Source: Candidatus Poribacteria bacterium (GTDB lineage Bacteria; Poribacteria; WGA-4E; WGA-3G). From it: 64,000 nucleotides of DNA. Positions 10,778 through 62,340 of the stretch are shown one piece after another (the stretch's first letter is position 1; each line of letters opens with the position of its first letter). A program made the position numbers and the translations under genes. The DNA is taken from the NCBI GenBank assembly GCA_963663765.2, contig CAXXUA010000011.1, forward strand, positions 117,491-181,490, written 5' to 3'. The notes beneath the pieces are model-generated. The model made no database searches, was not told the DNA's origin, and worked only from the letters and a program-made list of their open reading frames with translations.

Positions 10778-11404
10778 ATACCAATTCAAATAAATCTTGT
10801 CTCATTAAGGAATTCTACTGTTTACTGGCAGGTGGTTACTCTCTTCGGTAGGAGCGACCTCCCGGTCGCGACCGTGAGGTCGCTCCTACCAGATTTCCAC
10901 TGCTAATGAGACATTATCACATGAAAATGGTATTATACCAATTCAAATAAATCTTGTCTCATTAAGGAATTCTACTGTTTACTGGCAGGGGGTTACTCTC
11001 TTCGGTAGGAGCGACCTCCCGGTCGCGACCGTGAGGTCGCTCCTACCAGATTTCCGCTGCTAATGAGACATTATCACATGAAAATGGTATTTTACCAATT
11101 CAAATAAATCTTGTCTCATTAAGGAATTCTACTGTTTACTGGCAAGGGGTTACTCTCTTCGGTAGGAGCGACCTCCCGGTCGTGACCGTAAGGTTGCTCC
11201 TACCAGATTTCCGCTGCTAATGAGACATTATCACATGAAAATGGTATTTTACCAATTCAAATAAATCTTGTCTCATTAAGGAATTCTACTGTTTACTGGC
11301 AGTGGGTTACTCTCTTCGGTAGGAGCGACCTCCCGGTCGCGACCGTGATGTTGCTCCTACCAGATTTCCGCTGCTAATAAGACATTATCACATGAAAATG
11401 GTAT
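10778..11404. repeat. 4 tandem copies of a 157-bp palindromic MITE-like unit with central GTAG REP
   Basis: Units start at 10778, 10935, 11092, 11249; ends ATACCAATTCA/TGAAAATGGTAT; inner TGTCTCATTA/TAATGAGACA; core GGTAGGAGCGACCTC...GAGGTCGCTCCTACC. Confidence 0.95.
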
Positions 11405-11445
11405 TATATAGTACTTGTGACAAGACTCTAAATTTACTTTCTATA

Positions 11446-11600
11446 CAGGTTTTACGCAGTTTACATGATCCAACCAAGAATGATGGCGAAAATGAGGTAA
11501 GTTTCAGCAGTTTTTTAGTTTCCAGTACCCATCAAGAAATCAACGGTATGAATGCAATTTAGGTATTCACACTCGCCTAACGTTTAGTTCGTAATTCCTG
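11446..11600. mobile_element. Degenerate CAGGACTTACGCA-type MITE overlapping the ybeY 3' end
   Basis: Ends CAGGTTTTACGCA and TTCGTAATTCCTG; interior matches the reverse complement of 15895-16052. Confidence 0.65.
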
Positions 11601-12033
11601 ATACAGATAACTCATGTAGGATAGAATTCTGTTTATCAAACATTATTGTAGCTTCTTCAGCCGTTTGATGGTCATATCCCAGCAAGTGCAGTACGCCGTG
11701 AACAGTCAAGAGTGTTACCTCATTTTCAAGTGAATGGTCAGCTTTCAGTGCTTGCCGTTCCGCGGTTTCCATAGAGATGACAACATCTCCAAGGATATCG
11801 GAATTCATCAAATCTGAATCTTTACCTTCAAGTTGAGAAAATGCTAATACATCTGTAGGTGAATTGATGCCACGATAATCACGGTTCAATTCTGTTATAC
11901 ATGAATCGCCTGTTAACAATATACTTACTTCTTTGTCAACTTTCTCATGTGCGTTTAAAGTAACTAAAACAGATTGATAGACAATGTCAACATCAAAAAA
12001 ACTATAATTACTGACATTAGTAATATCTATCAC
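11584..12033 (-). CDS. ybeY: rRNA maturation RNase YbeY
   Basis: LNRDYRG..SPTDVLAF, LGDVVIS, HGVLHLLGYDH. Confidence 0.96.
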   Translation of the reverse strand: MIDITNVSNYSFFDVDIVYQSVLVTLNAHEKVDKEVSILLTGDSCITELNRDYRGINSPTDVLAFSQLEGKDSDLMNSDILGDVVISMETAERQALKADHSLENEVTLLTVHGVLHLLGYDHQTAEEATIMFDKQNSILHELSVSGITN

Positions 12034-13049
12034 ACCTCTTTTCCTTCAGATTTCTCATCAAATTCAGCCACTAAAGGTTTATTGTTTGCGATTGATGAAT
12101 TTTCATAAGCCTCAATAATACGTTGAACTAATTCATGACGTACAACGTCAACTCTTGTAAAATAAATAAATTGTATACCATTAATTCCTGAAAGTACTTC
12201 TTGGGCATCAGCGAGTCCAGAAATTTTATGAGTAGGCAGATCGGTCTGTGTAATGTCTCCAGTGATGACTGCTTTTGAATCAAACCCGAGTCGTGTTAGG
12301 AACATCTTCATTTGCTCAATAGTAGCATTCTGCGCTTCATCAAGTACTACAAAAGAATTGTTGAGTGTTCTCCCCCTCATAAAAGCAATCGGAGCGACTT
12401 CTATTATATTACGTTCAATATAATTGTCAAGAGTATCTGGAGGAATCATATCGTATAATGCATCATACAGGGGACGTAGATATGGATGTACCTTTGCAGC
12501 GATATCACCCGGTAGAAATCCGAGCCGTTCTCCTGCTTCCACTGCTGGTCGTGTCAAGATGATACGGCTTACTTCGCCCTTTTTTAGCGCAGATACAGCC
12601 ATCGCCATTGCCAAGTATGTTTTGCCCGTTCCTGCCGGACCAATACCAAACACAAGATCGTTATTTATGATCGCTTCAACATATCTTCTCTGTCCAGCAG
12701 TCTTAGGACGAATCGTACCGCGTTTAGAAAACACAGGAATAGATTCTGTAGGTTTTTTGTCTAATGTTTCTACACCATTTTCTGTTGTTACACGAATAGC
12801 GTAGTTGACATCAGTCGTTTGAATTCGTTCTCCTTTGCGGATACGATGGAGAAGCGATTCCAATACAGCTACGACCCTATTAACCTCTGATACGTTTTCG
12901 CCAAGCACAGCGATTCTATCGCTTTTTAAAACAACACGTACATTAAAAGCTTCTTCAATGATCTTTAAGAAAGCATCACTATGTCCAAATAGAACTTGAA
13001 CTTCAGCGTTGTTCTGTATAGGAACGCCTTTTGATTCTTGTTTTTGCAA
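12030..13049 (-). CDS. phoH: PhoH-like ATPase
   Basis: GPAGTGKT, RPAVEAGERLGFLPGD, RGRTL, DEAQN, VVRH. Confidence 0.96.
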   Translation of the reverse strand: MQKQESKGVPIQNNAEVQVLFGHSDAFLKIIEEAFNVRVVLKSDRIAVLGENVSEVNRVVAVLESLLHRIRKGERIQTTDVNYAIRVTTENGVETLDKKPTESIPVFSKRGTIRPKTAGQRRYVEAIINNDLVFGIGPAGTGKTYLAMAMAVSALKKGEVSRIILTRPAVEAGERLGFLPGDIAAKVHPYLRPLYDALYDMIPPDTLDNYIERNIIEVAPIAFMRGRTLNNSFVVLDEAQNATIEQMKMFLTRLGFDSKAVITGDITQTDLPTHKISGLADAQEVLSGINGIQFIYFTRVDVVRHELVQRIIEAYENSSIANNKPLVAEFDEKSEGKEV

Positions 13050-13169
13050 TCGGGTTTAATTCCTCCAAGAAAGTTATGTGTTGCAGCTAACACAATTGAG
13101 TAGGATTGTATAACGAAATAAATGATTTGATTATTATACAATTATATGTTGGCTAATACAAGCAGATTC

Positions 13170-15894: not shown

Positions 15895-16052
15895 CAGGAC
15901 TTACGCAAAAACTGTAGGCGGTGAATGCCTAAATGGCATTCATACCGTTGATTTGGTGCTTTGTAAGCGCGCTGGAAACCCATAAAAACGCTGATAATTG
16001 CATCATTTTCGTCATAATTCTTGATTAAATCAAGAAAACTGCGTAAGTCCTA
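15895..16052. mobile_element. CAGGACTTACGCA-type MITE with REP arm and 36-nt insertion
   Basis: TIRs CAGGACTTACGCA/TGCGTAAGTCCTA; near-identical to 22617-22738 apart from the insert at 15920-15955. Confidence 0.85.
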
Positions 16053-16113
16053 TTCTAATGTAAATTTAAGTATAGCATATTTACACAGAATACACAATGT
16101 AACAGACTGATAA

Positions 16114-16932
16114 TCAATTTTGACGAAATCCTGTTTCTGTTCTGAACCAATTTATTCCTTGGTCTGGTTCTCGGAAGGGAATATTTCTTCCCAAAAGTTG
16201 TTTAAGAATATCACTTTCACCAGATAAAGTATCTTCACTTAACTGTCTTGCCATATCCTCTTGTGGATATATCACAGACCGATTATACATACCGAGTAAC
16301 CCAATTCTTGAACTGTCAGTTGAATTCGGAAGACATTGATGCCAGATTGATCCGTTTGTGAACAGAATTGAACCCTGGGGTGCGGTTGCAGCATGCATCT
16401 CAAGTCCTTCTGCCTCTCCCAATTTTGGTCTACGAAGCGTTTTGTGAGAACCAGCAATACAAGCAGTTGCACCATTTTCTCCAGTGAAATCATCTAACAT
16501 CCACACAGTTTGACCAGTTAGAAAACCCAATGGATACGGTTGTTGCATTGACCAATAAGGATAGTCAACATGCCACCCACCTTGTGGTGCACCAGGACCA
16601 ACAATATTAGCTGTGAATGTAGATGCTATCACATCTTCACCAAGCATCCGCTTCCAGACTGCAACTACAGTGGGATGTTGAATAAGTCTACGGAAGATCG
16701 GTGATTTCCCAACAATTCCCCAGACACGTCGGATCTTACCATTTCCATAAGTATGGTCTCGACCATTATCAATGTCCTCCTCAACCAATTCCAAAATTAC
16801 TTCACGTGCTTCATCCGCTTCTTGCTTTGAAATTACATTCTCAATAATATGAAAACCTACTTCACGCAGATCATGTTCAACATTATCAAGTTGTTCTGAG
16901 TTTAATGCAGACTTAATTTGCAATATTTCCAC
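16114..16932 (-). CDS. Phytanoyl-CoA dioxygenase (PhyH) family 2OG-Fe(II) oxygenase
   Basis: WHVD, LDDFTGENGAT..IAGSH, IWH...N.TDSSR. Confidence 0.9.
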   Translation of the reverse strand: MEILQIKSALNSEQLDNVEHDLREVGFHIIENVISKQEADEAREVILELVEEDIDNGRDHTYGNGKIRRVWGIVGKSPIFRRLIQHPTVVAVWKRMLGEDVIASTFTANIVGPGAPQGGWHVDYPYWSMQQPYPLGFLTGQTVWMLDDFTGENGATACIAGSHKTLRRPKLGEAEGLEMHAATAPQGSILFTNGSIWHQCLPNSTDSSRIGLLGMYNRSVIYPQEDMARQLSEDTLSGESDILKQLLGRNIPFREPDQGINWFRTETGFRQN

Positions 16933-17078
16933 CTTTTTTGATGTTTATGAAAAAGATTTCAAAAAGCAACTCACAAATTACCAAGGGAAAAGAAAAAGCA
17001 TTATAAATTATTGACAGATTGTTTTCTTGTTTGTTAATTTACATTTAATTCCTTAATTTATCAAGTAGAATCATGCAG

Positions 17079-17632
17079 AGGCATTCAATTGTCACTATAC
17101 ATCTTTGCGGGAGTGCTTTCCATCCCCGATTTCTGAATCATGTATGACGCGAAATGCACAAATCAAAAACCTTTGATGAGGTAAATCCTGAAAATCTGGA
17201 AATACCGGGGAATACCATAAGGCATTCATACCCGACGAATGCCATAGGCGCAATCGGCGTTGATTTGGGGGAATGCTTTATAGCATTCATACCGTTGATT
17301 TCTTGATTTGTCCATCCTGGTTCAGACGAACTATCTTCTCCGCGCAATCCGCGTAATCCGAGATTTCGCACCCACCCTCTTGTGGAAGGGGTTTCCAACC
17401 CCGATCCTTCATCCGGTAGGAGCGACCTCCTGGTCGCGACCGTATTCGGATTTATCGCAAAGCTGCTTTCTTAGAAAATGCTTATTCTATGCCAAGAAAC
17501 CTAATGAAGAGGTCTTATCCTGAAAATCTGTAAATCCTGTAAATCCTGGTTCAGACAAAAAAACAAGCAAAAAACCTAATGCAGAGGTCTTATCCTGAAA
17601 TCCTGAAAATCTGTAAATCCTGGTTCAGACAA
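17079..17632. repeat. Cluster of REP arms, GAATGC hairpins and 9-bp-period AATCCTG...GGTTCAGAC repeats
   Basis: GTGGAAGGGGTTTCCAACCCCGA, GTAGGAGCGACCTCCTGGTCGCGA, and duplicated AAACCTAATG.AGAGGTCTTATCCTGAAA...ATCCTGGTTCAGACAA. Confidence 0.8.
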
Positions 17633-17706
17633 GAAAACACATAAACCATGAACAAAAAACAAAAAAACCAAGCAAAAAAATAACAAACCCGAAAAATCTA
17701 CTTTAC

Positions 17707-20208: not shown

Positions 20209-20226
20209 GATAACATACATTTTACT

Positions 20227-21312
20227 CTATATTTCAGGAACTTTCACTGCAACCTCTTTTTTCATCTTATGTGAACGGAAGATACCATCCATTATCACAT
20301 TCGTAAGCAGAACACCCTCGGGTGGTATAGGTGACGGTGCATCTGCTTTGATGGCTTCACGGAAGGCAATCATCTGTGCTGCCCAGTTATCTTCATTAGG
20401 GAAACCAGAAAAGCGAATAGTTGTCATGCCTTCAGGTGGATTCGGTTCTGCAGTTAATCCCTCTGATTCAACAAATTTCTTGAGTTCACCAGCATAAGCA
20501 TCTGCAAAAACAACCGGTCCGTCCAATGAAATCCCTGCTTTTCTACCGAGATGAAAATTGCCACCAAGTGAATCTGCATGCACTGCCCAAGAAATTTTAA
20601 ATACCATGACGCCACCATTGTCAAACCGAACCCATGCTACACTGAACTCTTCTACATCCATCTTGTCGCGAAATCTTGGATCCTGCATTGAAATGTAGTC
20701 CTCGGTTATCGCAGAGACACGAACAGGCTTCGGATAACCCATCGCAAATAGCGATCTATGCATATTGTAGACACCAATATCAACAGTTGCACCCGCACCA
20801 GCTGTCTTTTTATAAATGAATGTATGTCCGGGATTTCCACGACGCCTACAGCCAGCGGACTCAGAGTAATAGATATCACCGAGTAAGCCTTCGTCATATA
20901 ACTTTCTGGCAAATTGAAGCCTCGGACTAAATGTGGGATTGAGACCAATTTGTAAGATTTTACCTGTTGCTTTAGCGGCACGAACCATCGCTGTTGCATC
21001 AGGAAGTGTCGCTGCCATCGGTTTTTCACAGAGAACATGTTTACCTGCATTCAATGCTGCTACCGTCGGTCGCCGATGTCCCTGATTGTAAGTGGTGACA
21101 CTCACGGCATCAAGTTCATCCATTTCAAGCATCTTGTTGTAACTTGTAAATGCATTCTTTTTTGGTACACCCCATTCTTCTGCGGCTTGGTTGGCTTTAC
21201 TCTTGATGATGTCACACACGGCAACAATCTCAAAACCGCCTACTTTCTCATAGGTACCCCGGTGTGCTCGTGAAATACCACCTGTACCAATAATACCTAC
21301 TTTTACTGCCAT
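20227..21312 (-). CDS. Gfo/Idh/MocA oxidoreductase (tandem copy 2)
   Basis: IGTGGIS, CEKPMA; highly similar to 21431-22516. Confidence 0.93.
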   Translation of the reverse strand: MAVKVGIIGTGGISRAHRGTYEKVGGFEIVAVCDIIKSKANQAAEEWGVPKKNAFTSYNKMLEMDELDAVSVTTYNQGHRRPTVAALNAGKHVLCEKPMAATLPDATAMVRAAKATGKILQIGLNPTFSPRLQFARKLYDEGLLGDIYYSESAGCRRRGNPGHTFIYKKTAGAGATVDIGVYNMHRSLFAMGYPKPVRVSAITEDYISMQDPRFRDKMDVEEFSVAWVRFDNGGVMVFKISWAVHADSLGGNFHLGRKAGISLDGPVVFADAYAGELKKFVESEGLTAEPNPPEGMTTIRFSGFPNEDNWAAQMIAFREAIKADAPSPIPPEGVLLTNVIMDGIFRSHKMKKEVAVKVPEI

Positions 21313-21430: not shown

Positions 21431-22516
21431 CTAAAGCTCAGGAACCTTCACTGCTACCTCTTTCTTTGTCTTATGAGAACGGAAAATTCCATCCATTATT
21501 ACATTCGTTAGAAGCACACCTTCTGGTGGAAGTGGAGATGGACGATCTGCTAAAACTGCATCACGAAAAGCAGTCATTTGTGCATTCCAAACATCAACTT
21601 TCGGCAATCCTGCAAAACGGATTGTTGTCATACCTTCTGGGGGTTCTGGTATCGCTGTGAGTCCTTCAGATTCCACCAGTTTCTGTAATTCTTTACTATA
21701 GGAGTCAGCATACACGGTCGGTCCACTAAACGAGATACCCGCTTTTTTTCCAAGACAGAAACTACCACCAAGTGAGTTCTGATGCACTGCCCAGGATATC
21801 TTAAAGACCATCACACCACCGTTTTCAAAACGAACCCACGCAGCACCGAATTCTTCTACATCCATTTTGTCTTTGAATCTCGGATCTTGTAATGAGATGT
21901 AATCTTCAGTAATCGCAGACACACGCACAGGTTTCGGATAACCCATCACATACAAGGAGTTGTGTAAGTTGTAGATACCGATGTCAACGATGGCACCCGC
22001 TCCGGCTGTCTTCTTGTAGATAAACGTCCTTCCCGGTGTTCCGCGACGTCTACAATTAGCAGATTCAGAATAGTATATATCACCGAGAATGCCTTCATCA
22101 ACGATTTTTTTAGACAATTGATTGGATGGTGAGAAAGCACTTTTCACGCCAATCTGTAGTATTTTACCAGATGCTTTCGCGGCGCGTACCATCGCGGTTG
22201 CATCAGCAAGTGTTGCTGCCATCGGTTTCTCACAGAATACATGCTTACCTGCGTTCAATGCAGCAACCGTCGGACGTCGATGTGCCTGATTATAGGTGCA
22301 AACACTCACCGTGTCAATCTCATCCATCTCCAACATCTTGTTGTAACTTGTGAATACATTCTTTTTTGGAACACCCCAGTTTTCTGCTGCCTGAAGTGCC
22401 TTTTCCCGGAATATGTCACACACAGCCACAATCTCAAACCCATCAACACTTGTATAGGCTCTATGGTGTGCACGTGAAATACCTCCCGTCCCAACAATCC
22501 CAACGCGTATTGCCAT
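21431..22516 (-). CDS. Gfo/Idh/MocA oxidoreductase (tandem copy 1)
   Basis: VGTGGIS, CEKPMA; same 361-aa length as its neighbour. Confidence 0.93.
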   Translation of the reverse strand: MAIRVGIVGTGGISRAHHRAYTSVDGFEIVAVCDIFREKALQAAENWGVPKKNVFTSYNKMLEMDEIDTVSVCTYNQAHRRPTVAALNAGKHVFCEKPMAATLADATAMVRAAKASGKILQIGVKSAFSPSNQLSKKIVDEGILGDIYYSESANCRRRGTPGRTFIYKKTAGAGAIVDIGIYNLHNSLYVMGYPKPVRVSAITEDYISLQDPRFKDKMDVEEFGAAWVRFENGGVMVFKISWAVHQNSLGGSFCLGKKAGISFSGPTVYADSYSKELQKLVESEGLTAIPEPPEGMTTIRFAGLPKVDVWNAQMTAFRDAVLADRPSPLPPEGVLLTNVIMDGIFRSHKTKKEVAVKVPEL

Positions 22517-22616: not shown

Positions 22617-22738
22617 CAGGACTTACGTAAAAAAGGTAGGCGTGCTTTGTAAGCGCGCTGGAAACCCATAAAAACGCTGATAATTGCATCATTTTCAACA
22701 TAATTTTTGATTAAATCAAGAAAACTGCGTAAGTCCTG
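22617..22738. mobile_element. 122-bp CAGGACTTACG-type MITE with 6-bp TSD
   Basis: TIRs CAGGACTTACG/CGTAAGTCCTG; GGAGTA on both sides (22611-22616, 22739-22744); carries REP arm GTAGGCGTGCTTTGTAAGCGCGC. Confidence 0.9.
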
Positions 22739-22774: not shown

Positions 22775-24589
22775 ATGAGTATTAATGCAGACAAAATACG
22801 ACTTTCACAAGTGCATACACTGACAAAAATGCGGCGTAAGTTAAAGTTAAACGAAATGGTCACTGTATACCAGGAATATGAAGACAAAGAAGAACATAGT
22901 AAACGTTACATCTATTGTGCTCTGATTCCGTCATCTCAAATTCAGGAATCGCTTGCTCACTCAGATTCGGATTTGACTTCTTATCGTGGCATACCTGGTG
23001 GGGTAACCTACCATAAACAAGGTGAATTGCATCGCGAATACCTACGCTACGGTGTTGATAACGGCGTTGAACCCTTGATTATCAATAGAAACTTTTATAG
23101 ATTGTGGGAAGAATACAATGAAATATCTGAAGAATTCCGTCTGTTTCATAATCTCTATCACGACCAAAAAACGAATCAATACCTCAAAATAGATGATGTT
23201 GGAAATGAAGAAGTCGTAGCAATGGTCACACCAGATCACATACAGATTCGGCTCAAAGAAATTCGTCAATTTTTAGCTATCAAGGAGATGCACCTCGCGA
23301 TTCAATTCGTTTTTCATCAAAATTCAATATATTCATTGGAGGAACTGGAATTGCAAGCTGGTGAAGATAACAAACGGGATGGACTTATGTGCTGGCTGCA
23401 CCGCTATGGTGATCTCACTGGCATTGGGAACTGTCAGACTTTTAGTTATTTGGTCGGGAAACGACTTCTTGAACCCCTGCCAAAAGCAAAAAGCGGTTTT
23501 TGGCCCTTCGCTGAGGAAACAGATGTAAAATATGAGGAATTTATTATTGATGTTGATGAAGATGGAGAAGAAATTCTATACACTTCTAACCCGGATGAAC
23601 TGAAAACACCTGCCGACCCAGAGAATATTCGTGGAGTGGATAATGATGCACCAAGTTATCTAACTCCCATCCATTTCAGTAAGAAGGTGTTAGGAAAATA
23701 TTACCATGAACCAAGAAAATACAGTGTAGAGGATTCAATTTTGAGATGTGGGAGTTTGTGGGGTGTCTTTATTGACAATCATCATGAAGACAGAGTTTGT
23801 GCGTGGTTAGGTGATCTTGGACACGATCTTCCATACAGCGAACAGCAACATTGGCGACAACACAATATTTCACCAACAGGTGGGATAAACAAAACTTTTT
23901 TTGATCGTCAGTTAGGTACCCAGTTCACAGATTCAGATATGCCTGAAAATATCTTTAAACAACGTTATCGTGATTTACAAAAGGCAAGTCAAGAAGAGCT
24001 TGCCGAGCAATGGTTGTTACCACTTAGCACTGCAGATACATATCTCCTTGAATGCCTGAGAATTCCCGCTACTGATGAACATCGCCATTTTGATGAATTG
24101 GTTTTGAGTCTGACAAAGATACTAATTGATTCTCTTAACGAAGCATATTTGAAAAAGATGATTCCTTTTAGGAAACGACTGGAATATAAAGAGAAAAGAG
24201 GCATTGCACTACTTGAAGCTGCTTTACATTTGAATAAAATTAAAGGAACAAACGGGCATGTTGATTTTTTCAGAAAACTCCAGAGTCTTCGTTCAAGTGG
24301 TAGTGAACATCGGAATGGAAGTAAATACGAAAAAATTGCGAAGCACTTCGGAATAGAGAACCAAAATCTAAGTGGTGTTTTTACTGAAATTCTCAATAGC
24401 GCAACTAAAGTTCTTAATTTTTTTATTATGCTTGTGAAAAGTGGACAAATCCGTGAAATAGTTGAAAAAAATCAGATGGCAGCAGGATATGCTGTTATGG
24501 GTGAGATGATTGGAATTACCAATTCTGGTTCAACTGATGGTTCTGTCAATCACGATAATTTTATATTTGAAGAGCAATCTAAAACATGA
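22775..24589 (+). CDS. Uncharacterised protein with C-terminal HEPN-like motif and antitoxin-like tail
   Basis: 604-aa ORF with AGGAGG RBS; LQSLRSSGSEHR (R-x5-H); tail GEMIGITNSGSTDGSVNHDNFIF. Confidence 0.7.
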   Translation: MSINADKIRLSQVHTLTKMRRKLKLNEMVTVYQEYEDKEEHSKRYIYCALIPSSQIQESLAHSDSDLTSYRGIPGGVTYHKQGELHREYLRYGVDNGVEPLIINRNFYRLWEEYNEISEEFRLFHNLYHDQKTNQYLKIDDVGNEEVVAMVTPDHIQIRLKEIRQFLAIKEMHLAIQFVFHQNSIYSLEELELQAGEDNKRDGLMCWLHRYGDLTGIGNCQTFSYLVGKRLLEPLPKAKSGFWPFAEETDVKYEEFIIDVDEDGEEILYTSNPDELKTPADPENIRGVDNDAPSYLTPIHFSKKVLGKYYHEPRKYSVEDSILRCGSLWGVFIDNHHEDRVCAWLGDLGHDLPYSEQQHWRQHNISPTGGINKTFFDRQLGTQFTDSDMPENIFKQRYRDLQKASQEELAEQWLLPLSTADTYLLECLRIPATDEHRHFDELVLSLTKILIDSLNEAYLKKMIPFRKRLEYKEKRGIALLEAALHLNKIKGTNGHVDFFRKLQSLRSSGSEHRNGSKYEKIAKHFGIENQNLSGVFTEILNSATKVLNFFIMLVKSGQIREIVEKNQMAAGYAVMGEMIGITNSGSTDGSVNHDNFIFEEQSKT

Positions 24590-25101
24590 TTTTTGTTGAT
24601 ACAGGTGCTTGGATTGCTCTATTAAATCAGAGGGATCAATACCATCATGATGCTGTAGTTGTGTTTAACAAGTTGCAACTACATCGGATGCGATTACTTA
24701 CTACAGATTATGTGATTGACGAAACCGTTACTCGCTTTAGATACGATACGAACCACACACTTACTGTTGAATTCTTGAACCGTATTGAACTTCTGGAAGA
24801 AACAGAATTTTTAACCATTGCAGAAATCGATAAAAATGTATTTGAGGCAGTAAAATCACTTTTCCGACAGTATGACTCAGTACAACTATCCTTTACAGAT
24901 TGCACCAGTTTTGTAATTTGCCGTGTTCATAAAATTTCAGAGGCATTTGCGTTTGACCACCATTTTCCAATAATGGGAATTATAGTGGATTTTAGAATTA
25001 TTTTTACACTTTCAGGTGTAGGAGGGAACTCCGATTCCCGACTATATTCTGTGTATTGTAGGAGGGAACTCCGATTCCCGACTATATTCTGTGTAATGTA
25101 G
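24586..25101 (+). CDS. vapC: PIN-domain VapC toxin (C-terminus altered by a MITE insertion after about codon 132)
   Basis: IFVDTGAWIAL, TTDYVIDET, LSFTDCTSF, AFAFDHHF; ATGA overlap with the upstream gene. Confidence 0.9.
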   Translation: MIFVDTGAWIALLNQRDQYHHDAVVVFNKLQLHRMRLLTTDYVIDETVTRFRYDTNHTLTVEFLNRIELLEETEFLTIAEIDKNVFEAVKSLFRQYDSVQLSFTDCTSFVICRVHKISEAFAFDHHFPIMGIIVDFRIIFTLSGVGGNSDSRLYSVYCRRELRFPTIFCVM

Positions 25102-25675
25102 GAGGGAACTCCGATTCCCGACTATATTCTGTGTAATGTAGGAGGGAACTCCGATTCCCGACTATATTCTGTGTATTGTAGGAGGGAACTCCGATTCCCG
25201 ACTATATTCTGTGTATTGTAGGAGGGAACTCCGATTCCCGACAATATTCTGTGTATTGTAGGAGGGAACTCCGATTCCCGACTATATTCTGTGTAATGTA
25301 GGAGGGAACTCCGATTCCCGACTATATTCTGTGTATTGTAGGAGGGAACTCCGATTCCCGACTATATTCTGTGTATTGTAGGAGGGAACTCCGATTCCCG
25401 ACTATATTCTGTGTATTGTAGGAGGGAACTCCGATTCCCGACTATATTCTGCGTAATGTAGGAGGGAACTCCGATTCCCGACTATATTCTGTGTATTGTA
25501 GGAGGGAACTCCGATTCCCGACTATATTCTGTGTAATGTAGGAGGGAACTCCGATTCCCGACAATATTCTGTGTATTGTAGGAGGGAACTCCGATTCCCG
25601 ACTATCAACGCGTTCAGTCACGATTCGGAGATCGCTCCTATAGAAAAAGTGTAAACTTAATTGTATATTTCACTA
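24983..25675. mobile_element. TA-flanked MITE enclosing a 40-bp tandem array
   Basis: Imperfect ~29-bp TIRs TAGTGGATTTTAGAATTATTTTTACACTT / AAGTGTAAACTTAATTGTATATTTCACTA with TA on each side. Confidence 0.8.
25017..25605. repeat. 15 x 40-bp tandem array of a REP left arm
   Basis: GGAGGGAACT recurs every 40 bp from 25021 to 25581; unit TGTAGGAGGGAACTCCGATTCCCGACTATATTCTGTGTA(T/A); single complementary arm at ~25617-25642. Confidence 0.97.
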
Positions 25676-25747
25676 TAATTTGCGACAATAGTTAGTCACG
25701 ATTTAATACCGCAGCAGTAAAACAATAGCATTGACTACTGCATTAGA

Positions 25748-30329: not shown

Positions 30330-30479
30330 TTATGTGTCCTTTGATATGATATATATTTCTATATGATCTATGAAGCCTATAATATTCTATGTAATATTCT
30401 GTTTTTTCTCAAGAAAAACATGAAGGCATGTATAGAATTTGGCATGAATGAGGGTGTGTAGAGTCGATATACCTTATAT

Positions 30480-30652
30480 CTGAACCAGGATTTTCAGGAT
30501 TATTAGATTTTCAGGATTAGAGTCTGATGGTGTTATTTTCCATTCTAAACGGTTACATATTTGTGTCTATTACGATAGTGTTTATCGTAAGGAAAGGGAT
30601 TGATGCGCCAGCATATTATCCTGGAAATCTATAAATCACGAATATCGCGGAT
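30480..30652. repeat. CTGAACCAGGATT...AATC 9-bp-period inverted element
   Basis: CTGAACCAGGATTTTCAGGATTATTAGATTTTCAGGATT with a degenerate opposite arm. Confidence 0.6.
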
Positions 30653-30712: not shown

Positions 30713-31288
30713 GGGTGTGTAAAGTTTTTGCACAAACTGCTCATTCTTCATTGTAGAGCGGGGTCTCTGTGCCCCGCCGCAAAATTGATTAAATGAGAGA
30801 TTGCGGTGGGGCACAGAGACCCATAGGTGTCAATATAAGGAAATATTGTTAATATCAACCATACTCTTCAGTCCCGTAGGGACGATATGTTTATAGAAAA
30901 CGAGTACCCTTCCCAGTTCTTTAGTCCCGTAGGGACGATATGTTTAACCTTCTATGTCGTTTCTATGGAACTCAAGCAAGAGAGGGTGATAACGCCTTTT
31001 TATAAACATATCGTCCCTAATGAAGTTTAAAAAATAAATTAGGTAATTCTATCTAATCCACCCTGGAAGGCGTGCTTTGTAAGCGCGCTGTTGGACTTGA
31101 TGTGCCAGCGCTCTTACAAAGCACCAAATCAACGGTATGAAACATGGAGCATGCCACAAGCGCATGCTTCTTTAGGCATTCCCCACCTACCGAGTGAGAA
31201 GTATTTATTTCCCGTTTAATAACTTAATCTTCATACGGGACTAAAGAGAACAAAAGTTTGTACCTCTGTGTAAGAACTTTACACACCC
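30713..31288. mobile_element. GGGTGTGTAAAG-TIR composite MITE, copy 1 (inverted relative to copies 2 and 3)
   Basis: Ends GGGTGTGTAAAG/CTTTACACACCC; AGTCCCGTAGGGACG REPs; nested TGAAG...CTTCA element at 31021-31233. Confidence 0.85.
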
Positions 31289-33985: not shown

Positions 33986-34592
33986 TAGTGTTGAGTCAAC
34001 ATACTCTTGTTGGTCGAGATTCGTAGATCGCTCCTACAGAAGTCTTGTGTATTGTGTGTATTGTGTGTATTGTAGGAGGGAACTCCGATTCCCGACTATA
34101 TTTTAGACGCATCAATAAACACGTGACTAAGCACTGGTGTTGAGTCAACATACTCTTGTTGGTCGAGATTCGTAGATCGCTCCTACAGAAGTCTTGTGTA
34201 TTGTGTGTATTGTGTGTATTGTGTGTATTGTAGGAGGGAACTCCGATTCCCGACTATATTTTAGACGCATCAATAAACACGTGACTAAGCACTGGTGTTG
34301 AGTCAACATACTCTTGTTGGTCGAGATTCGTAGATCGCTCCTACAGAAGTCTTGTGTATTGTGTGTATTGTGTGTATTGTAGGAGGGAACTCCGATTCCC
34401 GACTATATTTTAGACGCATCAATAAACACGTGACTAAGCACTGGTGTTGAGTCAACATACTCTTGTTGGTCGAGATTCGTAGATCGCTCCTACAGAAGTC
34501 TTGTGTATTGTGTGTATTGTGTGTATTGTAGGAGGGAACTCCGATTCCCGACTATATTTTAGACCCATCAATAAACACTTGACTAAGCACTA
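33986..34592. repeat. 4 tandem ~149-bp MITE-like units with back-to-back REP arms and a 9-bp microsatellite
   Basis: Units at 33988, 34137, 34295, 34444; unit 2 has one extra TGTGTATTG; outer ends TAGTGTTGAGTCAA/TTGACTAAGCACTA. Confidence 0.95.
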
Positions 34593-34614
34593 ATGCTTAG
34601 AATACCCTATCCTA

Positions 34615-35162
34615 CGCAAAAAAACCTCATGCAGATGTCTTCTCCGAGTTGTTCCGTGTCATCCGAGATTCTGTCTAAACCAGGATTATCAGGATTATCA
34701 GATTACAAGGATTACCATATTAAGGTTTTTTGATGCGCGTTGGAGTCTTCTTTTGAAATAGGATTTGATGAAAAAAATCCAAAAAAACTATTAATCCCAT
34801 ATAATGCCATACGCGCATTCAATCCAGGGGAATGCTTTATAGCATTCATACCCGGGGAATGCCTAAATGGCATTCATATCGTTGATTTCTTGATTTGAAA
34901 ATTCTGGTTCAGACAACAGAGGACGTTATAACTCAGAATAGATTCTATTCCTTCAAATTGGAATTTTAGGATAAGATTAGGATTACCCAATTAGTAAATT
35001 AAACTTCATTAATTTTAAAATATTGAAACCTGAACATCGGTCTTTAGTCCCGACAATGCCATGCGCGCATTCGACGGGACTAAGACATGGACAAGATGGC
35101 AACACATAAAATTAACGTCATAGCAAAAATTCATCAATAATACCTAAAACTGAATAACCCTG
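34615..35162. repeat. Nested 9-bp-period element, GAATGC hairpins and degenerate CAGGGTTATTCAG-type MITE
   Basis: CCAGGATTATCAGGATT...TTCTGGTTCAGAC; GGGGAATGCTTTATAGCATTC and GGGGAATGCCTAAATGGCATTC; CTGAATAACCCTG end. Confidence 0.7.
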
Positions 35163-37065: not shown

Positions 37066-37265
37066 GTAGAGCAAACTGTTAGTTTATGTAAAGGTTTTCA
37101 ATTGTCCGAAATGGACAATTGTGGAAGGGGTTTGTAACTACGATTTCATAGAACAAGCATATCAAATCGGGGTTACAAACCCCTCCCACAAAGATATATT
37201 GTGACAATTGAATACCTCTGTTAGTTTGCATTCCACAGATGCACAAACTAACAGTTTGTGCTATA
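37066..37265. repeat. REP-like palindrome interrupted by an AGGT.TTCAATTGTC-ended element that carries another REP
   Basis: GTAGAGCAAACTGTTAGTTT...AAACTAACAGTTTGTGCTA; insert 37092-37217 with TIRs and GTGGAAGGGGTTTGTAAC...GTTACAAACCCCTCCCAC. Confidence 0.75.
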
Positions 37266-37286
37266 GTACTCACGTTTTATGTAGGA

Positions 37287-41879: not shown

Positions 41880-41999
41880 CAGGGTTATTCAGTGTTCCAA
41901 ATAATCGAATTTTGCAAATTGAAACCCCACGGTAGGAGCGACCTCCCGGTCGAGATTTTCTCAAGAAACGGGTAAAATGTGTAAAACTGAATAACCCTG
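41880..41999. mobile_element. 120-bp CAGGGTTATTCAG MITE with REP arm
   Basis: Perfect 13-bp TIR; TSD GAGTGTTGG/GAGTGTCGG; GTAGGAGCGACCTCCCGGTCG inside. Confidence 0.88.
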
Positions 42000-44371: not shown

Positions 44372-44565
44372 CAGAAATTTCGCAAAAACGGTAGGCGGGG
44401 AATGCCTAAATGGCATTCATACCCGGGGAATGCCAAAAGGCATTCATACCGTTGATTTCTTGATTTGGTGCTTTGTAAGCGCGCTGGAACCCTATAAAAT
44501 TACTGATTAATTACATCATTTTCAACATAATTCTTGAATAAATCAAGAAAACTGCGTAAGTCCTG
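44372..44565. mobile_element. CAGGACTTACGCA-type MITE with duplicated GAATGC insert
   Basis: Ends CAGAAATTTCGCA/TGCGTAAGTCCTG; AAGAA flanks; insert 44397-44467. Confidence 0.8.
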
Positions 44566-53606: not shown

Positions 53607-53897
53607 TTTGTATAAGCATCCTTAATACATATAGAATGCTTCTCCATATTTTACCCGCAACGATATGTCAACATTTTATTCACATCTGCGGGGAAGATGT
53701 CAATGTGTGACGTAATGGAATTTGTAAAATATGCTCTGAATGTTCTTAATATGTTCTATTTTATTGATTGCTTTAAACTGAAACAGCGATATTTCTTCAA
53801 CTTTCATACTTCTGTGAACCACATTATGTATCATAAGCACTGAATTGTTTATATAATAACATGCTATAAAAAATAAAACAAGTTAAAAATCTGTCAG

Positions 53898-54382
53898 GGG
53901 TGTGTAAAGTTTTTGCACAGAGGTACTAACTTTTGTTCTCTTTAGTCCCGTAGGGACGCAATGTTTATAGAAAGACGTTATCACATCCCTCTCTTTAGTT
54001 CCGTAGGAACGATATAGAAGGATAAACATATCGTCCCTACGGGACTAAAAAGACGTGGGGATATGTCTTTCTATAAACATATCGTCCCTTCGGGACTGAA
54101 GAATATGGTTAATATTAACAATATTTCTTTATATTGACACCTAATGAGGTTTGACAATCAAAATCGGTAGTTGAATTCGTAGGGGTTGGGTTCCCCAACC
54201 CGTTGGTTTTTGAGTTTGCGTAGAACATGTGTGGAAACCACGTCCCTACGAATACACAACTTGAACGTCAAAACTCATTAGGACTCTGTGTCCGCAATCT
54301 CTCATTTAATCAGTTGCGGCGGGGCACAGAGACCTGCCCTACAATGGAGAGTGGGATGTTTGTGTTATAACTTTACACACCC
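53898..54382. mobile_element. GGGTGTGTAAAG-TIR composite MITE, copy 2
   Basis: TIRs plus flanking direct repeat ATCTGTCA(G); nested TAATGA...TCATTA element at 54142-54280. Confidence 0.9.
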
Positions 54383-54446
54383 ATCTGTCAGGGGTGTGTA
54401 AAGTTATAGCAGACAGAATTAGTCAATCAACGGTAGGAATGCCTTA

Positions 54447-55020
54447 TGAAAATTAATAACTAAATTAGGCAATTCTATCTTATCCACAGCGGTATGCGTG
54501 CTTTGTAAGCGCGCTGGCACATCAAGTCCCCAGAGCGCGCTTACAAAGCACGCCTACCGTTTGAGAAATATTTTATTACCGATTTAATAAAATAATTTTC
54601 ATTTAGATTGTGTTCTCTGAAGCACAATCTAAATGAAAATTAATAACTAAATTAACGAGTTGTGCTAAATAACTATATATTAACCATTGTTTCACATAAG
54701 CATGACGTTTTGCAGGTGTCCTTCATAGTTTGAAACGATCTTCAGTCCCGTAGGGACGATATGTTTATAGAAAAACGTCAAAGTACATCCTCTTTAGTCC
54801 CGTAGGGACGATATGTGTGCATTATAAACCTAATATATGTAAAAACTTTGAAAACAATGGGTTAACTGGCACAAGTCGTTAAATTAGGCAATTCTATCTT
54901 ACCCACAGTTGTAGGCGTGCTTTGTAAGCGCGCTGGCACATCAAGTCCGAAAAGCGCGCTTACAAAGCACGCCTACCGTCGGAGAGATATTTTATTACCG
55001 ATTTAATAAATTACTCTTCA
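54447..55020. mobile_element. Two TGAA(G/A)-TIR MITEs; the second carries a nested ACGAGTTGTGC element
   Basis: 54447-54601 and 54634-55020 each hold a GTAGGCGTGCTTTGTAAGCGCGC REP pair; insert 54655-54879 is flanked by TAAATTA. Confidence 0.8.
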
Positions 55021-55074
55021 TACAGATTGTGTTACATTGGTAGCAACTTAGGTAACTTTACAAAAATCTTAACT

Positions 55075-60326: not shown

Positions 60327-60359
60327 AGATGTGCTGTTAGAATGATTTAGTGATATACA

Positions 60360-60388: not shown

Positions 60389-60537
60389 GGTACGAACCAG
60401 GGTTATTCAGTTTTCAATTTATTGAGTAAATTCTATCACTGTTGTTATTCCTTGAGTTAGTTTATTTTTAGGAGTCAACTTTTTCTTTGTCTGAACAAGG
60501 ATTTTCAAATCAAGAAATCAACGGTATGAATGCTATA

Positions 60538-61249
60538 TGAAGATTAAAAAATACTTTGGGTAATTTTACTAATCCGGCCACGGTAGGCGTGCTTTGTCCG
60601 CGCGCCTACCACTGCAGTCGTGCTTTGTCCGCGCGCCTACCACTGCAGTCGTGCTTTGTCCGCGCGCCACCAACTGCAGTCGTGCTTTGTAAGCGCGCCA
60701 CCAACTGCAGTCGTGCTTTTTAAGCGCTCCACCAACTGCAAGCCGTGCTTTGTCCGCGCGCCACCAACTGCAAGCCGTGCTTTGTCCGCGCTCCACCAAC
60801 TGCAGTCGTGCTTTGTCCGCGCGCCTACCACTGCAGTCGTGCTTTGTAAGCGCGCCCCCGATGGTAGGCGTGCTTTGTAAGCGCGCCCCCAACTGCAGTC
60901 GTGCTTTGATGAAGATTAAAAAATACTTTGGGTAATTCTACTAATCCGGCCACGGTAGGCGTGCTTTGTAAGCGCGCCCCCGATGGTAGGCGTGCTTTGT
61001 AAGCGCGTCCCCGATGGTAGGCGTGCTTTGTAAGCGCGCCCCCGATGGTAGGCGTGCTTTGTAAGCGCGTCCCCGATGGTAGGCGTGCTTTGTAAGCGCG
61101 TCCCCGATGGTAGGCGTGCTTTGTAAGCGCGCCCCCGATGGTAGGCGTGCTTTGTAAGCGCGCTGGCACATCAAGTCCCAAGAGCGCGCTTACATAGCAC
61201 GCCTACCATCTGAAAAATATTTATTACCCGATTAATAAATTAATCTTCA
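60538..61249. mobile_element. TA-flanked TGAAGATTAA MITE expanded by two REP-arm arrays
   Basis: TIRs TGAAGATTAA/TTAATCTTCA; left end repeated at 60910; arrays at 60582-60908 and 60955-61163. Confidence 0.88.
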
Positions 61250-61521
61250 TATAGCATTCCCCGGGAATGAATGCCTTATGGCATTCCCCGGGATTAGTAG
61301 ATTATCAAGATTTGTTTCATCAAATCCTATCACAAAAGAGAGCAAAAACACATATCAAAAACTCTTGATGAGGTAAATCCTGAAAATCTGGTAATCCTGA
61401 AAATCTTTGTTCAGACAATAAACAAAAAAAACCAAAAATCCCTATATTTATCAGTAATCTTAACCCAAAGTTAACCTGTATAACATGAGAATATAAAAAT
61501 TGGATAACAATGATAATCTTT

Positions 61522-61638
61522 CAGGGTTATTCAGTTTTTGGCATTTTAGTTATTTCCTGAGAAAATCGCGACCGGGAGTTCGCTCCTACCGCGGGATTTC
61601 TTTTTTTAGCCAAAAATTAGGAAAACTGAATAACCCTG
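61522..61638. mobile_element. 117-bp CAGGGTTATTCAG MITE with perfect 10-bp TSD
   Basis: GATAATCTTT on both sides; REP arm in the opposite orientation to the 41880 copy. Confidence 0.9.
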
Positions 61639-61683
61639 GATAATCTTTACTGTCCCCGTTGACCCGTTGACCCGTTGACCCGT

Positions 61684-62340
61684 GGGTGTGTAAAGATTTT
61701 GCACCATAAGCGTCAATTTAAGGATTTTCACCTCTTGTGGGAGGGGTTTTCAACCCCGAATTTATGCGCTTTTCCTCTCAAATCAAGCGTGAAAAACCCT
61801 CCCACAAGAAAAATGACAACAATATTTTCTTAAATTGACGCCTATGGTGTGTAAAGATTTTGCACAGAGGTACAAACTTTTTTCTCTTTAGTCCCGTAGG
61901 GACGCAATGTTTATAGAAAGACGTTATCACCCCTCTCTTGAGTTCCGTAGGAACGACATAAAAGGTTAAACCATATCGTCCCTACGGGACAAAAAAAAGA
62001 CGTGAGGATATGTATTTCTATAAACATATCGTCCCTACGGGACTGATGCGTATGGTTGATATTAACAATATTTCCTTATATTGACACCTAATGAAGTTTG
62101 ACAATCAATCGGTATTTGAATACGTTGGGGTTGGGGTTCCCCAACCCGTTTGGTTTTTTAAGTTTGCGAAGATCATGTGTGGCAACCACGCCCCTACGAA
62201 TACACAAAATACACAACTTGAACGTCAAAACTCATTAGGGCTCTGTGCCCCGCAATCTCTCATTTAATCAGTTGGGGCGGGCACAGAGTCCCACCCTACA
62301 ATGAAGAATGAGTAGTTTGTGCAAAAATTTTTATACACCC
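61684..62340. mobile_element. GGGTGTGTAAAG-TIR composite MITE, copy 3
   Basis: TSD TGACCCGT; second left end at ~61846; nested elements at ~61704-61847 and 62089-62237. Confidence 0.88.

Follow-up and report, generated by a model that had tools for sequence, protein, structure and literature searches.

Nested REP hairpins and miniature transposons in the intergenic DNA of a sponge-symbiont Poribacteria genome

GTAG REPs, REPINs and BIME-like clusters (Nunvar; Bertels & Rainey; Di Nocera et al. 2013, PMC3733652) consist of palindromes 20-30 nt long that lie outside genes and carry an unpaired GTAG(G) tag at the 5' end. They occur singly, as inverted pairs folding into long hairpins, or in ordered tandem clusters, and a genome holds several families, which differ by compensatory stem changes. 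The Poribacteria repeats described here share this architecture. They differ in that Poribacteria are not among the phyla reported in the literature searched, in that genomes of 40-55% GC have one 23-mer in identical form, and in that nearly all copies in this genome lie inside other repeats. GTAG dimers have been found within long palindromes of Anabaena variabilis, and A. variabilis GTAG-15, Thermomicrobium roseum GTAG-23 and Halothiobacillus neapolitanus CGTC-1 are, like the REPs here, regularly set in the middle of a longer inverted-repeat unit (PMC3733652). Those host palindromes, one per species, were mentioned in passing as "not investigated in detail", whereas the Poribacteria DNA holds about ten unrelated shells, several with target duplications and one with a matching insertion sequence (IS).

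REPs are also targets of ISs, among them ISPpu9, ISPpu10, ISPsy8, ISPa11, ISRm22 and ISRm19 (PMC1525189). Like these, and like IS1397 and IS621, the TGAAG family lands in REP loops (REP_C, REP_G and REP_D); unlike them, it is a non-coding MITE whose hosts are five unrelated palindromes and not one REP family. As in Nezha/ISNpu3 (PMC3184786), the S2 MITE has only terminal repeats and duplication length in common with a full IS, here in another genome of the same group; unlike Nezha, its partner belongs to the IS701 family and its interior is unrelated to the IS and starts with a REP. Both REP-in-palindrome mosaics and REP-targeting ISs are thus already published. For the SDRs of Nostoc punctiforme, Elhai et al. 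(2008, Genome Res 18:1484) reportedly describe hairpin modules of 21-27 nt with precise insertion sites, found inside larger repeats; these are cyanobacterial, unlike the Poribacteria repeats, to which they may be likened. The insertion site of SDR5 in HIP1 is exactly between its third and fourth bases (PMC4390886).

Tagged hairpins and their shells

The window, a stretch of 64,000 nt from one contig of a Candidatus Poribacteria genome, has intergenic DNA made up of small hairpin repeats and miniature transposons nested in each other, with at least six palindrome families of GTAGG-tagged REP hairpins. Every motif of the preliminary description that we checked was found at its position: REP_A (GTAGGAGCGACCTCCCGGTCG) starts at 10848, 11005, 11162, 11319 and 41932; REP_B (GTAGGAGGGAACTCCGA) has 15 copies in 25018-25578 and 4 in 34072-34528; REP_C (GTAGGCGTGCTTTGTAAGCGCGC) starts at 22636, 54535 (reverse strand), 54911 and 54954 (reverse strand), with 5 further copies in 60864-61141; and REP_D (AGTCCCGTAGGGACG) has 8 copies, at 30.9, 53.9-54.8 and 61.9-62.0 kb. 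These positions bear out that the same REP can occur in unrelated shells.

GTAG/GTGG-tagged hairpins are far above chance in this intergenic DNA: a strict detector, which required GTRGG and a perfect stem, found 32 in 13.5 kb of intergenic against 3 in 50.5 kb of coding sequence, and 100 Markov shuffles of the intergenic DNA gave a mean of 0.49 and a maximum of 3. The proposed enrichment of REPs in shells also held, since a second detector placed 26 of 27 hairpins within 5,988 nt of shell DNA, one in the remaining intergenic DNA (7,555 nt) and none in 50,457 nt of coding DNA, in a count whose shell intervals were drawn with REP positions known and whose copy numbers are inflated by tandem arrays. 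We collected 120 GTAGG hairpins of 8-3-8 geometry, in which a compensatory flip separates the two commonest forms (GC in 16 and CG in 13 of 33 distinct rows), and REP inverted pairs fold with z of -8 to -9.6.

Eight of the ten end-types listed initially pair as inverted repeats: TACCA...TGGTA, CAGGACTTACGCA, CAGGGTTATTCAG (14/14 and 17/17), GGGTGTGTAAAG (14/14), TGAAG, ACGAGTTGTGC, CATAGGCGTCAA (21 nt, 95%) and TAATGA (22 nt, 82-86%). The other two are the TAGTGG arm pair (24978-25012/25646-25680) and TAGTGTTGAG, the head of a tandem unit. A target duplication of 5-6 bp flanks the CAGGACTTACG shell, and those of other shells are given below. No consistent multi-base duplication accompanies the TGAAG elements, contrary to the first listing, and clear ones are lacking in TGAAG, CATAGG, TAATGA and the 37-kb element, so these may not be DDE elements at all.

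Four tandem ATACCA units (10779-11403, 154 nt each, TIR TACCA..TGGTA) each carry a REP_A inverted pair (REPIN) at the hairpin apex (fold -60.2 kcal/mol, z -7.4); what was taken for a "TA" duplication is better read as the 3-nt TTA/TTT spacer between units. The S3a MITE (41880-41999, forward strand; CAGGGTTATTCAGT, TIR 14/14) has a single central REP_A and the flanking repeat GAGTGTTGG/GAGTGTCGG, a 9-bp duplication with one mismatch, and S3b (61522-61638, reverse strand; TIR 17/17, perfect 10-bp duplication GATAATCTTT) has a REP_A variant at the equivalent place, the entire element being inverted. The TAGTGG shell (24978-25680, forward strand), with 35-nt arms that are 83% complementary, encloses fifteen 40-nt tandem REP_B units (25017-25605) and an inverted partner REP (~25612-25642); it adjoins the 3' end of a PIN-domain ORF. 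Each of the four tandem TAGTGTTGAG units (33986-34600, forward strand; 149-158 nt) combines REP_B with its 26-nt inverted partner and a run of TGTGTAT heptamers. The 37-kb element (37059-37271, 213 nt) is a triple-nested palindrome, with outer arms at 37059-37088/37242-37271, inner arms at 37092-37106/37203-37217 and a GTGG-type REP_F pair at the apex (37119-37150/37160-37191). Outside all shells, the sole naked REP_A (17416-17437) follows tandem copies of hairpin E and a GTGG-type hairpin (17380-17405) in a forward-strand cluster at 17205-17437.

Nesting in both directions

REPs had been described as riding in shells. They do lie inside them, but MITEs also enter REP loops and a hairpin module enters a REP, so that riding is half of the picture. 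The module, hairpin E (36 nt), interrupts the REP_C of the S2a MITE (15895-16052, forward strand; IS701-type ends CAGGACTTACGCA) exactly between GTAGGC and GTGCTTTG, and two modules (71 nt) occupy the same site in S2c (44381-44565, forward strand; 5' end truncated). The S2b MITE (22617-22738, forward strand; flanking repeat GGAGTA), itself intact and with an unsplit REP_C at 22636, is the empty-site paralogue of this insertion, as is the S2 copy at another Poribacteria locus (L016).

In GGGTG_a (30713-31288, 576 nt, TIR 14/14), which has REP_D copies inside, one REP_D loop has taken in TGAAG_a (31020-31234), which itself bears a hairpin-E module (~31128-31190) in one arm of its REP_C pair. GGGTG_b (53898-54382, 485 nt, perfect 9-bp duplication ATCTGTCAG) contains four REP_D copies, a TAATGA sub-element (54140-54282) and a GTAGGGGTTGGG hairpin at 54179. 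GGGTG_c (61684-62340, perfect 8-bp duplication TGACCCGT) contains a CATAGG element (arms 61702-61722/61829-61849, REP_F pair at the apex), REP_D copies and a TAATGA sub-element (62087-62239). The composite region at 54392-55022 comprises a solo GGGTG end, TGAAG_b (54446-54602), a CACAATCT palindrome (54605-54633) and TGAAG_d (54633-55021). TGAAG_b and TGAAG_d each have a REP_C inverted pair (pair fold -48.6 kcal/mol, z -9.6), and TGAAG_d is interrupted by a 227-nt ACGAG MITE (54655-54881, perfect 7-bp duplication TAAATTA) that holds two REP_D copies, a filled site for which TGAAG_b is the empty paralogue. TGAAG_c (60537-61250) lies in a hairpin-E loop, between the flanks GAATGCTAT and ATAGCATTC, and has at its centre 31-nt tandem REP_C arrays of tagless and tagged units that end in a REP_C inverted pair.

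TGAAG elements occupy the loops of five unrelated palindromes, REPs among them. In five of eight copies, 8 or more of 14 flanking nt pair with each other, and in a sixth 6 nt do so (null frequencies 0.0036 and 0.024), and 8 pairs are reached by none of 14 copies of other families. The indels examined between related species, at four orthologous loci, consisted of genes and not of REPs or MITEs, so no orthologous empty site was obtained.

Cargo, relatives and enzymes

The REP cargo had been called interchangeable, which this genome contradicts: each shell family keeps one REP type in one place (REP_C in S2 and TGAAG, REP_A in S3 and ATACCA, REP_B in the TAGTGG shell). The position of REP_C is identical in the S2 copies of the window and of loci L016, L006 and L019, as is that of REP_A in both S3 copies, so the cargo would be inherited and not swapped. 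Differences were seen only between species, where the same shell has other REPs or none. The TGAAG centre is a single REP_C at L008 and L016, another REP at L009, an inverted pair or array in the window and a non-REP insert at L019, and S2 shells lack a REP at L020 (8707-8827) and L005 (6245-6311).

The exact 23-nt REP_C was present in at least 22 loci (22 of 22 fetched) from 13 assemblies of Candidatus Poribacteria MAGs, 12 of them classed as Poribacteria and the 13th orthologous to three of these. GC content of the loci ranges from 0.395 to 0.548, and window proteins reach 84.5% and 58% identity with their ORFs. These matches place the window in Candidatus Poribacteria, and a cyanobacterial source is rejected. 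Both REP_C and a relative with one base pair flipped occur across the phylum. In most of the other loci REP_C is naked, without a shell, and REP-in-shell is a trait of this low-GC lineage and not of the phylum.

That the shells are MITEs mobilised by DDE transposases holds for at least S2. At L020 an IS of 1091 bp (628-1718) has the ends CAGGACTTACGCA/TGCGTAAGTCCTG, a 5-bp duplication TCTAT and a 352-aa ORF that matches NCBIfam IS701 at 362 bits (cut-off 250), and its left end has 18 nt in common with the window S2 right ends. Matching of terminal repeats to ISs succeeded for this one of about ten shell families; ISs with the ends of TGAAG, GGGTG, S3 or ATACCA did not turn up in the DNA examined, and movement of the other families by DDE transposases is presumed. 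The window itself is without an enzyme, as first described, none of its 42 ORFs of at least 100 aa matching a transposase family in Pfam. RAYT genes occur in single copy and no more than ~200 bp from their REPs (bioRxiv 10.1101/2022.05.22.493013). Unlike in RAYT-linked GTAG REPs, no RAYT gene was found in the 461 kb examined (window and loci), which says little for a single-copy gene: Pfam detected no RAYT/Y1 among the 42 window ORFs and 89 locus ORFs, nor NCBIfam among 150 locus ORFs, and searches of the window and the 22 loci with E. coli RayT (tblastn, phmmer) gave a best E-value of ~1.

Origin of the mosaics

REPs might mainly be functional structure cassettes (stabilisers of mRNA 3' ends or between cistrons, terminators or protein-binding sites), with REP-carrying MITEs tolerated or favoured, so that selection and not insertion preference explains the REP in nearly every surviving shell. 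We consider this unlikely, although the RNA-structure alternative of the preliminary description gains some support from strand bias. Where naked REP_C lies between co-directional genes, the GTAG strand is the mRNA sense in 28 of 31 copies (31 of 44 REP_C copies examined, 21 loci), or at ~14 independent sites against 2 in our own grouping (binomial two-sided ~0.004); replication-tied single-strand transposition would give such a bias equally. The sense RNA folds more strongly than the antisense (-12.3 against -7.7 kcal/mol) because of a G.U pair, and among distinct variants non-Watson-Crick stem cells are G.T rather than A.C by 13 to 2, a ratio that becomes 6 to 2 when derivatives of the scanned form are left out. 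At one intercistronic site with orthologues in four species (loci ~80-83% identical), all four have the same REP_C, but this conservation is ascertained, since the locus scan demanded the exact 23-mer. Moreover, most window REPs are inverted pairs, hence in both orientations, or lie in divergent promoter regions, and 15-unit tandem arrays are hard to square with tuned cassettes.

It is improbable that most shells are long REPINs whose arms are part of the unit copied by a RAYT-like enzyme, REP and shell forming one element. REP inverted pairs do sit at the exact apex of the ATACCA, TGAAG, CATAGG and 37-kb palindromes, the last three of which, with TAATGA, are those lacking clear duplications, and Di Nocera et al. 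(PMC3733652) found the A. variabilis host palindrome in no REP-free copy. However, the S2 ends are those of an IS701-family IS, the TGAAG and S2 shells are known with another REP or none, and S3, GGGTG and ACGAG have perfect duplications of 7-10 bp. To our knowledge, HUH transposition of the IS200/IS605 kind makes no such duplications. Recombination and slippage among abundant repeats (unequal crossing-over, REP gene conversion), with the mosaics as frozen relics, seems very improbable as the main source. The exact array periods (31, 40, 149-158 and 157 nt), the mismatched flanks of TGAAG_b, as after exchange between copies, and the four orthologous loci without presence/absence polymorphism would fit it, but perfect target duplications and precise filled/empty paralogues point to insertion, several arrays have 96-100% unit-to-unit identity, and an intact IS with S2-type ends exists in a related genome.

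We therefore favour, as the probable explanation, two classes of non-autonomous repeats, mutually nested and moved by enzymes encoded elsewhere. One would be the GTAGG-tagged hairpins, resembling classical REPs and REPINs and presumably made and maintained by RAYT-type HUH tyrosine transposases; the other would be MITEs of several unrelated families, with TIRs and TSDs, that depend on DDE transposases for movement. Each MITE family may have captured a REP once, mostly at its own hairpin apex, and then amplified, so that cargo would be constant within a family and genome and turn over only between species. Hairpin loops, including those of REPs, are preferred landing sites of at least one MITE family (TGAAG), and hairpin E inserts into resident REPs exactly after their GTAGGC tag. 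Both kinds of landing, along with tandem amplification, would have built the Russian-doll mosaics of this genome, whose components are of known kinds; what is new is the phylum and how deeply the repeats are nested.

Shells, their ends and their insertion sequence partners

The preliminary observation is confirmed: the window belongs to a Poribacteria genome and holds a dense, mutually nested mosaic, in which REP hairpins are combined with DDE-type MITEs and each component is of a known kind. Its GC content is 0.36-0.44 and its genes are ordinary and mainly on the minus strand (SMC, RecO, YbeY, PhoH, ArgJ, a sulfatase, DUF1501, a TonB-dependent receptor, and several GFO/IDH/MocA oxidoreductases), with a tRNA-Pro as the sole Rfam and ARAGORN match. 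Self-comparison found 10,196 nt of repeated DNA, of which 3,788 nt are two gene duplications and ~6.4 kb are small repeats, all of them intergenic.

The repeat coverage includes two tandem GFO/IDH/MocA oxidoreductase paralogues (20227-21312 and 21431-22516, 70-80% DNA identity), an ordinary gene duplication. At the right-hand end of the window, one gene is present in two tandem copies of ~736 nt (62424-63159 and 63244-63979) with a mean column identity of 86% and many differences at third codon positions. Both copies are split into successive frames by single-base indels, often in homopolymer runs and at sites that differ per copy; no ORF in 61181-64000 reaches 100 aa, and the fragments have neither a Pfam match nor a relative among the ORFs of the window or of the 22 Poribacteria loci that were retrieved with the exact 23-nt palindrome REP_C (numbered with the prefix L). 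Either these pseudogenes are of recent origin, or the consensus is poor locally where the tandem duplication lies.

The REPs and end motifs quoted in the preliminary description are present where it placed them, and the ends of the shells, MITE-like units bounded by terminal inverted repeats (TIRs), pair as inverted repeats. Several have clean target duplications: 10 bp (GATAATCTTT) for the shell copy S3b (61522-61638), 9 bp (ATCTGTCAG) for GGGTG_b (53898-54382), 8 bp (TGACCCGT) for GGGTG_c (61684-62340), 7 bp (TAAATTA) for the ACGAG shell (54655-54881), and 5-6 bp for the three copies of S2, the CAGGACTTACG shell. A CCGTTGAC run at 61655-61683 is the target of GGGTG_c. The families S2, S3, GGGTG, ACGAG, and ATACCA are non-coding, multicopy, and have both TIRs and a duplication, as expected of MITEs; the plain TA duplication attributed to ATACCA was, however, replaced by an arrangement of 154-nt units with a 3-nt TTA/TTT spacer. 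TGAAG, CATAGG, TAATGA, and the element at 37 kb have TIRs and no clear duplication. For TGAAG, a "TA" duplication was discarded because it is inconsistent among copies; in our own reading, the same single base stands at both flanks in seven of eight copies, from which we draw no inference.

As had been proposed, there is no enzyme for these elements in the window, since its 42 ORFs with a length of 100 aa or more gave no Pfam match to a transposase or Y1 family. In another Poribacteria chromosome (locus L020, 628-1718), we found a 1091-bp element with the ends CAGGACTTACGCA/TGCGTAAGTCCTG, flanked left and right by TCTAT. The ORF that it contains, of 352 aa, matched the NCBIfam IS701 model NF049921.1 with 362 bits (cut-off 250) and Pfam DDE_Tnp_1 with an E-value of 4.5e-12, and on its transposase and short duplication the element is an IS701-family IS. 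The right ends of the S2 shells in the window are identical to the left end of this IS over 18 nt (13-18 nt are common overall), the interiors are unrelated, and no remnant of an IS701 transposase was found in the window. A second IS/MITE pair occurs in L019, where an IS982-like element (15985-17252, 301-aa ORF, DDE_Tnp_1_3 9.5e-67, 18-nt ends TAACGTGAGTTTGATAAT) shares its ends with a small MITE at ~1100-1290. The S2 shells are real transposon relics, and the other shells probably so. The expectation that their TIRs would match those of full IS holds for S2; for TGAAG (ATGAAGATTAA), GGGTG, S3, and ATACCA, no autonomous IS with such ends was found in the 22 loci; a distant search of the PLSDB plasmids gave no match to 53889-55033.

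In the same locus L019, from another Poribacteria genome, the IS982-ended MITE lies inside a TGAAG MITE, itself lodged in the loop of the REP_C that an S2 MITE carries, which makes four levels of nesting.

Tagged hairpins and their place in the shells

The palindrome families REP_A, REP_B, REP_C, REP_E, REP_G, and REP_H begin with GTAG(G) and REP_F with GTGG; with stems of 5-9 bp, loops of 3-8 nt, and an unpaired tag, they have the form of the GTAG REP superfamily. REP_D is unlike the GTAG-type REPs in that its GTAG is inside the loop. The tagged hairpins are also numerous and nearly all extragenic, as is typical of the superfamily (32 in 13.5 kb of intergenic DNA versus 3 in 50.5 kb of coding DNA), and since 100 shuffles gave a mean of 0.49 and a maximum of 3, the intergenic number is far above chance. 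The proposed enrichment in shells over the intergenic background was upheld by a second detector, which placed 26 of 27 tagged hairpins within shell DNA (26 in 5,988 nt of shell, 1 in 7,555 nt of other intergenic DNA, and 0 in coding DNA), counts that refer to shell intervals drawn by ourselves and are inflated by tandem arrays. By eye, all of the ~10 shell families hold at least one tagged hairpin.

The window and 21 loci contain 120 GTAGG hairpins with the 8-3-8 geometry of REP_C and REP_G, 40 of them distinct. Their two main forms differ by one compensatory base-pair flip, the flipped pair being GC in 16, CG in 13, G.U in 1, and unpaired in 3 of 33 distinct rows (rows preselected for pairing, with seven unrelated ones left out). 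REPs also occur as the inverted pairs known as REPINs: a REP_C pair folds at -48.6 kcal/mol (z -9.6) and a REP_A pair at -38.3 (z -8.1), and inverted pairs of REP_F are found in the window too. Such a pair forms the apex of the ATACCA, TGAAG, CATAGG, and 37-kb palindromes.

No RAYT, the HUH/Y1 transposase presumed to make REPs, was detected with Pfam among the 42 window ORFs or among 89 locus ORFs (59 small ones included, with no Y1 or HUH family), nor with NCBIfam among 150 locus ORFs, again with no Y1 or HUH family. Searches with the Escherichia coli RayT (tblastn and phmmer) against the window and the 22 loci, 461 kb from 14 genomes, gave a best E-value of ~1. The 11 scanned ORFs with REPs on both sides are all ordinary genes or belong to no family, and inverted repeats of at least 12 nt bracket nine ORFs: the IS701-like and IS982-like transposases of L020 and L019, and ordinary genes between palindromic REPs. 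Because RAYT genes are described as single-copy and located within ~200 bp of their own REPs (bioRxiv 10.1101/2022.05.22.493013), their absence from 461 kb over 14 genomes says little. The GTAG tag together with the hairpin architecture leads us to infer that these REPs are linked to a RAYT.

The cargo of the shells had been proposed to be interchangeable. Within the window genome it is not, each shell family carrying one REP type: REP_C stands directly behind the left end in all three S2 copies, REP_A has the same relative place in both S3 copies (one of which is inverted as a whole), REP_C is central in every TGAAG copy, and the TAGTG units carry REP_B. Between species, the contents do differ. 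S2 shells with REP_C are also present in L016, L006, and L019, and REP-less S2 shells with other interiors were found in L020 (8707-8827) and L005 (6245-6311); what lies at the centre of TGAAG also varies, L008 and L016 having a single REP_C there, L009 another REP, L019 a large non-REP insert, and the window an inverted pair or array. A cargo constant within a genome and different between species points to contents that are inherited with each shell family and turn over on an evolutionary scale.

Some of these repeats extend into predicted genes. In a PIN-domain ORF (24586-25101), the Pfam match is confined to residues 2-128 and the last ~41 codons come from a TAGTGG shell and the first REP_B units; therefore, a MITE is located at the 3' end of the gene or replaces it. 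Two ORFs of 107 and 118 aa without a family match (60569-60892 and 60825-61181, both on the minus strand) are mere read-through of 31-nt REP_C tandem arrays, and hence spurious gene calls.

Nesting in both directions

TGAAG elements sit in the loops of other palindromes, REPs among them. Between the flanks of five of the eight copies, 8 or more of 14 nt are paired, and a sixth copy has 6 such pairs, at random-junction frequencies (n=5000) of 0.0036 for at least 8 pairs and 0.024 for 6; the 14 copies from other families all stay below 8 flank pairs. The hosts are the loop of REP_D (window position 31020), the loop of hairpin E (60537), a CACAATCT palindrome (54633 and also L009), the loop of REP_G (L016), and that of REP_C (L019). 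The copies TGAAG_b and TGAAG_d may go back to a single insertion that was duplicated, and even so there are at least five independent hosts.

Further insertions interrupt REPs and MITEs. A hairpin-E module lies exactly between GTAGGC and GTGCTTTG of REP_C, as 36 nt in S2a and 71 nt in S2c, and is missing at this junction in S2b and L016; hairpin E uses the same junction in the REP_C arm of TGAAG_a. The ACGAG MITE splits TGAAG_d with a 7-bp duplication, TGAAG_b being the empty site. Heptamer-like tandem runs (ATCCTGA/AAATCTG/TAAATCC ... CTGGTTCAGAC) adjoin hairpin-E copies at 17493-17640, 30479-30521, 34660-34700, and 61370-61420. Among the indels examined in four syntenic loci (L002, L011, L017, and L022), no REP or MITE polymorphism offered an orthologous empty site, a ~200-nt indel being a small ORF; in L004, the ORF that is 84.5% identical to a window gene stands next to another neighbour than in the window. 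The two-tier system of the preliminary description, with REPs riding in DDE-mobilised shells, is borne out in part: REPs do reside in shells, but the nesting is not one-way and the cargo is not interchangeable within the genome.

A further reading, to which we give little credence, is that the mosaic was written by two structure-directed insertion activities undescribed in this phylum, a loop-seeking TGAAG transposase and a HUH enzyme with the GTAGG(C) tag as its target. The TGAAG transposase may recognise the extruded hairpin itself rather than its sequence and then insert the element in the loop, which would explain how, across five species, palindromes of five unrelated families came to be TGAAG hosts. 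The tag, for its part, may be a shared HUH target or cleavage site outside the mobile REP, by analogy with TTAC, the target and cleavage site of IS608, and unrelated palindrome modules may have been inserted successively just 3' of it. If so, this would account for one tag on at least eight different palindromes, for the two different shells in which hairpin E falls precisely at the boundary of GTAGGC and the REP_C palindrome, for two E modules behind one tag at 44.4 kb, and for the first array at 60.6 kb, with tagless REP_C palindromes behind a single tag.

REP_C in Poribacteria and relation to known systems

The exact 23-nt REP_C was found in at least 22 loci of 13 assemblies, all of them, among the matches listed, Candidatus Poribacteria MAGs: 12 are titled Poribacteria and the thirteenth is orthologous to three others. 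Poribacteria are a separate candidate phylum in the NCBI taxonomy. A cyanobacterial origin of the window was rejected on these matches and on its gene content (sulfatase, DUF1501, TonB receptor). Among the same matches, the GC content of the loci ranges from 0.395 to 0.548, and two of them contain ORFs to which window proteins are up to 84.5% and 58% identical. Most loci have REP_C as a naked singlet within a short spacer; the GC-rich MAG AGPOR5 has it in inverted pairs with a second REP (GTAGGCGCGGTTTnnAACCGCGC) and in tandem clusters with periods of ~45-145 nt.

Between co-directional genes, the GTAG strand of REP_C is the mRNA sense strand in 28 of 31 copies (out of 44, the rest being 8 divergent, 2 convergent, and 3 inside ORFs), or in ~14 versus 2 independent sites (~0.004 in our own binomial calculation). 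The RNA folds at -12.3 kcal/mol in the sense versus -7.7 in the antisense orientation. This bias fits a role at the RNA level, and equally well single-strand transposition tied to replication. Four species have an identical REP_C at one intercistronic site that is orthologous among them; in the aligned spacer of L002, L011, L017, and L022 (REP_C at position 10001-10023), no invariant run is longer than the 33 columns of REP_C and the 10 nt after it. Such a run is suggestive of constraint in loci that were ascertained by an exact-match scan, and since that match was required for sampling, we set aside the conservation of REP_C at this site as proof of selection.

To our knowledge, Poribacteria are uncultured sponge symbionts for which MAGs and single cells are the sole sources, and we found no report of REPs or MITEs in them in the open-access literature and bioRxiv. 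The closest account of hairpin modules that insert precisely into other repeats is reportedly that of Elhai et al. (2008) on the very small mobile repeats of Nostoc. GTAG REPs have been described across numerous phyla (the PVC group and cyanobacteria among them), and a few REP families within longer host palindromes, such as GTAG-15 of A. variabilis, which the authors mention without studying it in detail (PMC3733652). REPs are described as insertion hot spots of IS (PMC1525189), and Nezha as an example of MITEs sharing their ends with an IS of another species (PMC3184786). The mosaic described here differs from the cyanobacterial SDR and Nezha mosaics in its host. What is new is the phylum, a 23-nt REP present across genomes of 40-55% GC, the occurrence of a REP in nearly every one of ~10 unrelated shells, and a loop-homing MITE.

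These nests break short-read assemblies and yield spurious ORFs, two of them in this window, so that the annotation of sponge-symbiont MAGs should mask them. With ~10 unrelated shells, each with a REP and mainly at the hairpin apex, the entry of REPs into shells versus a better survival of REP-bearing MITEs becomes a matter that can be counted, and the homing of the TGAAG MITE to loops in unrelated hairpins suggests that its target is chosen by structure. A 23-nt REP that is letter-identical across genomes of 40-55% GC makes a strong case for long-lived REP maintenance and gives a handle on the enzyme responsible.
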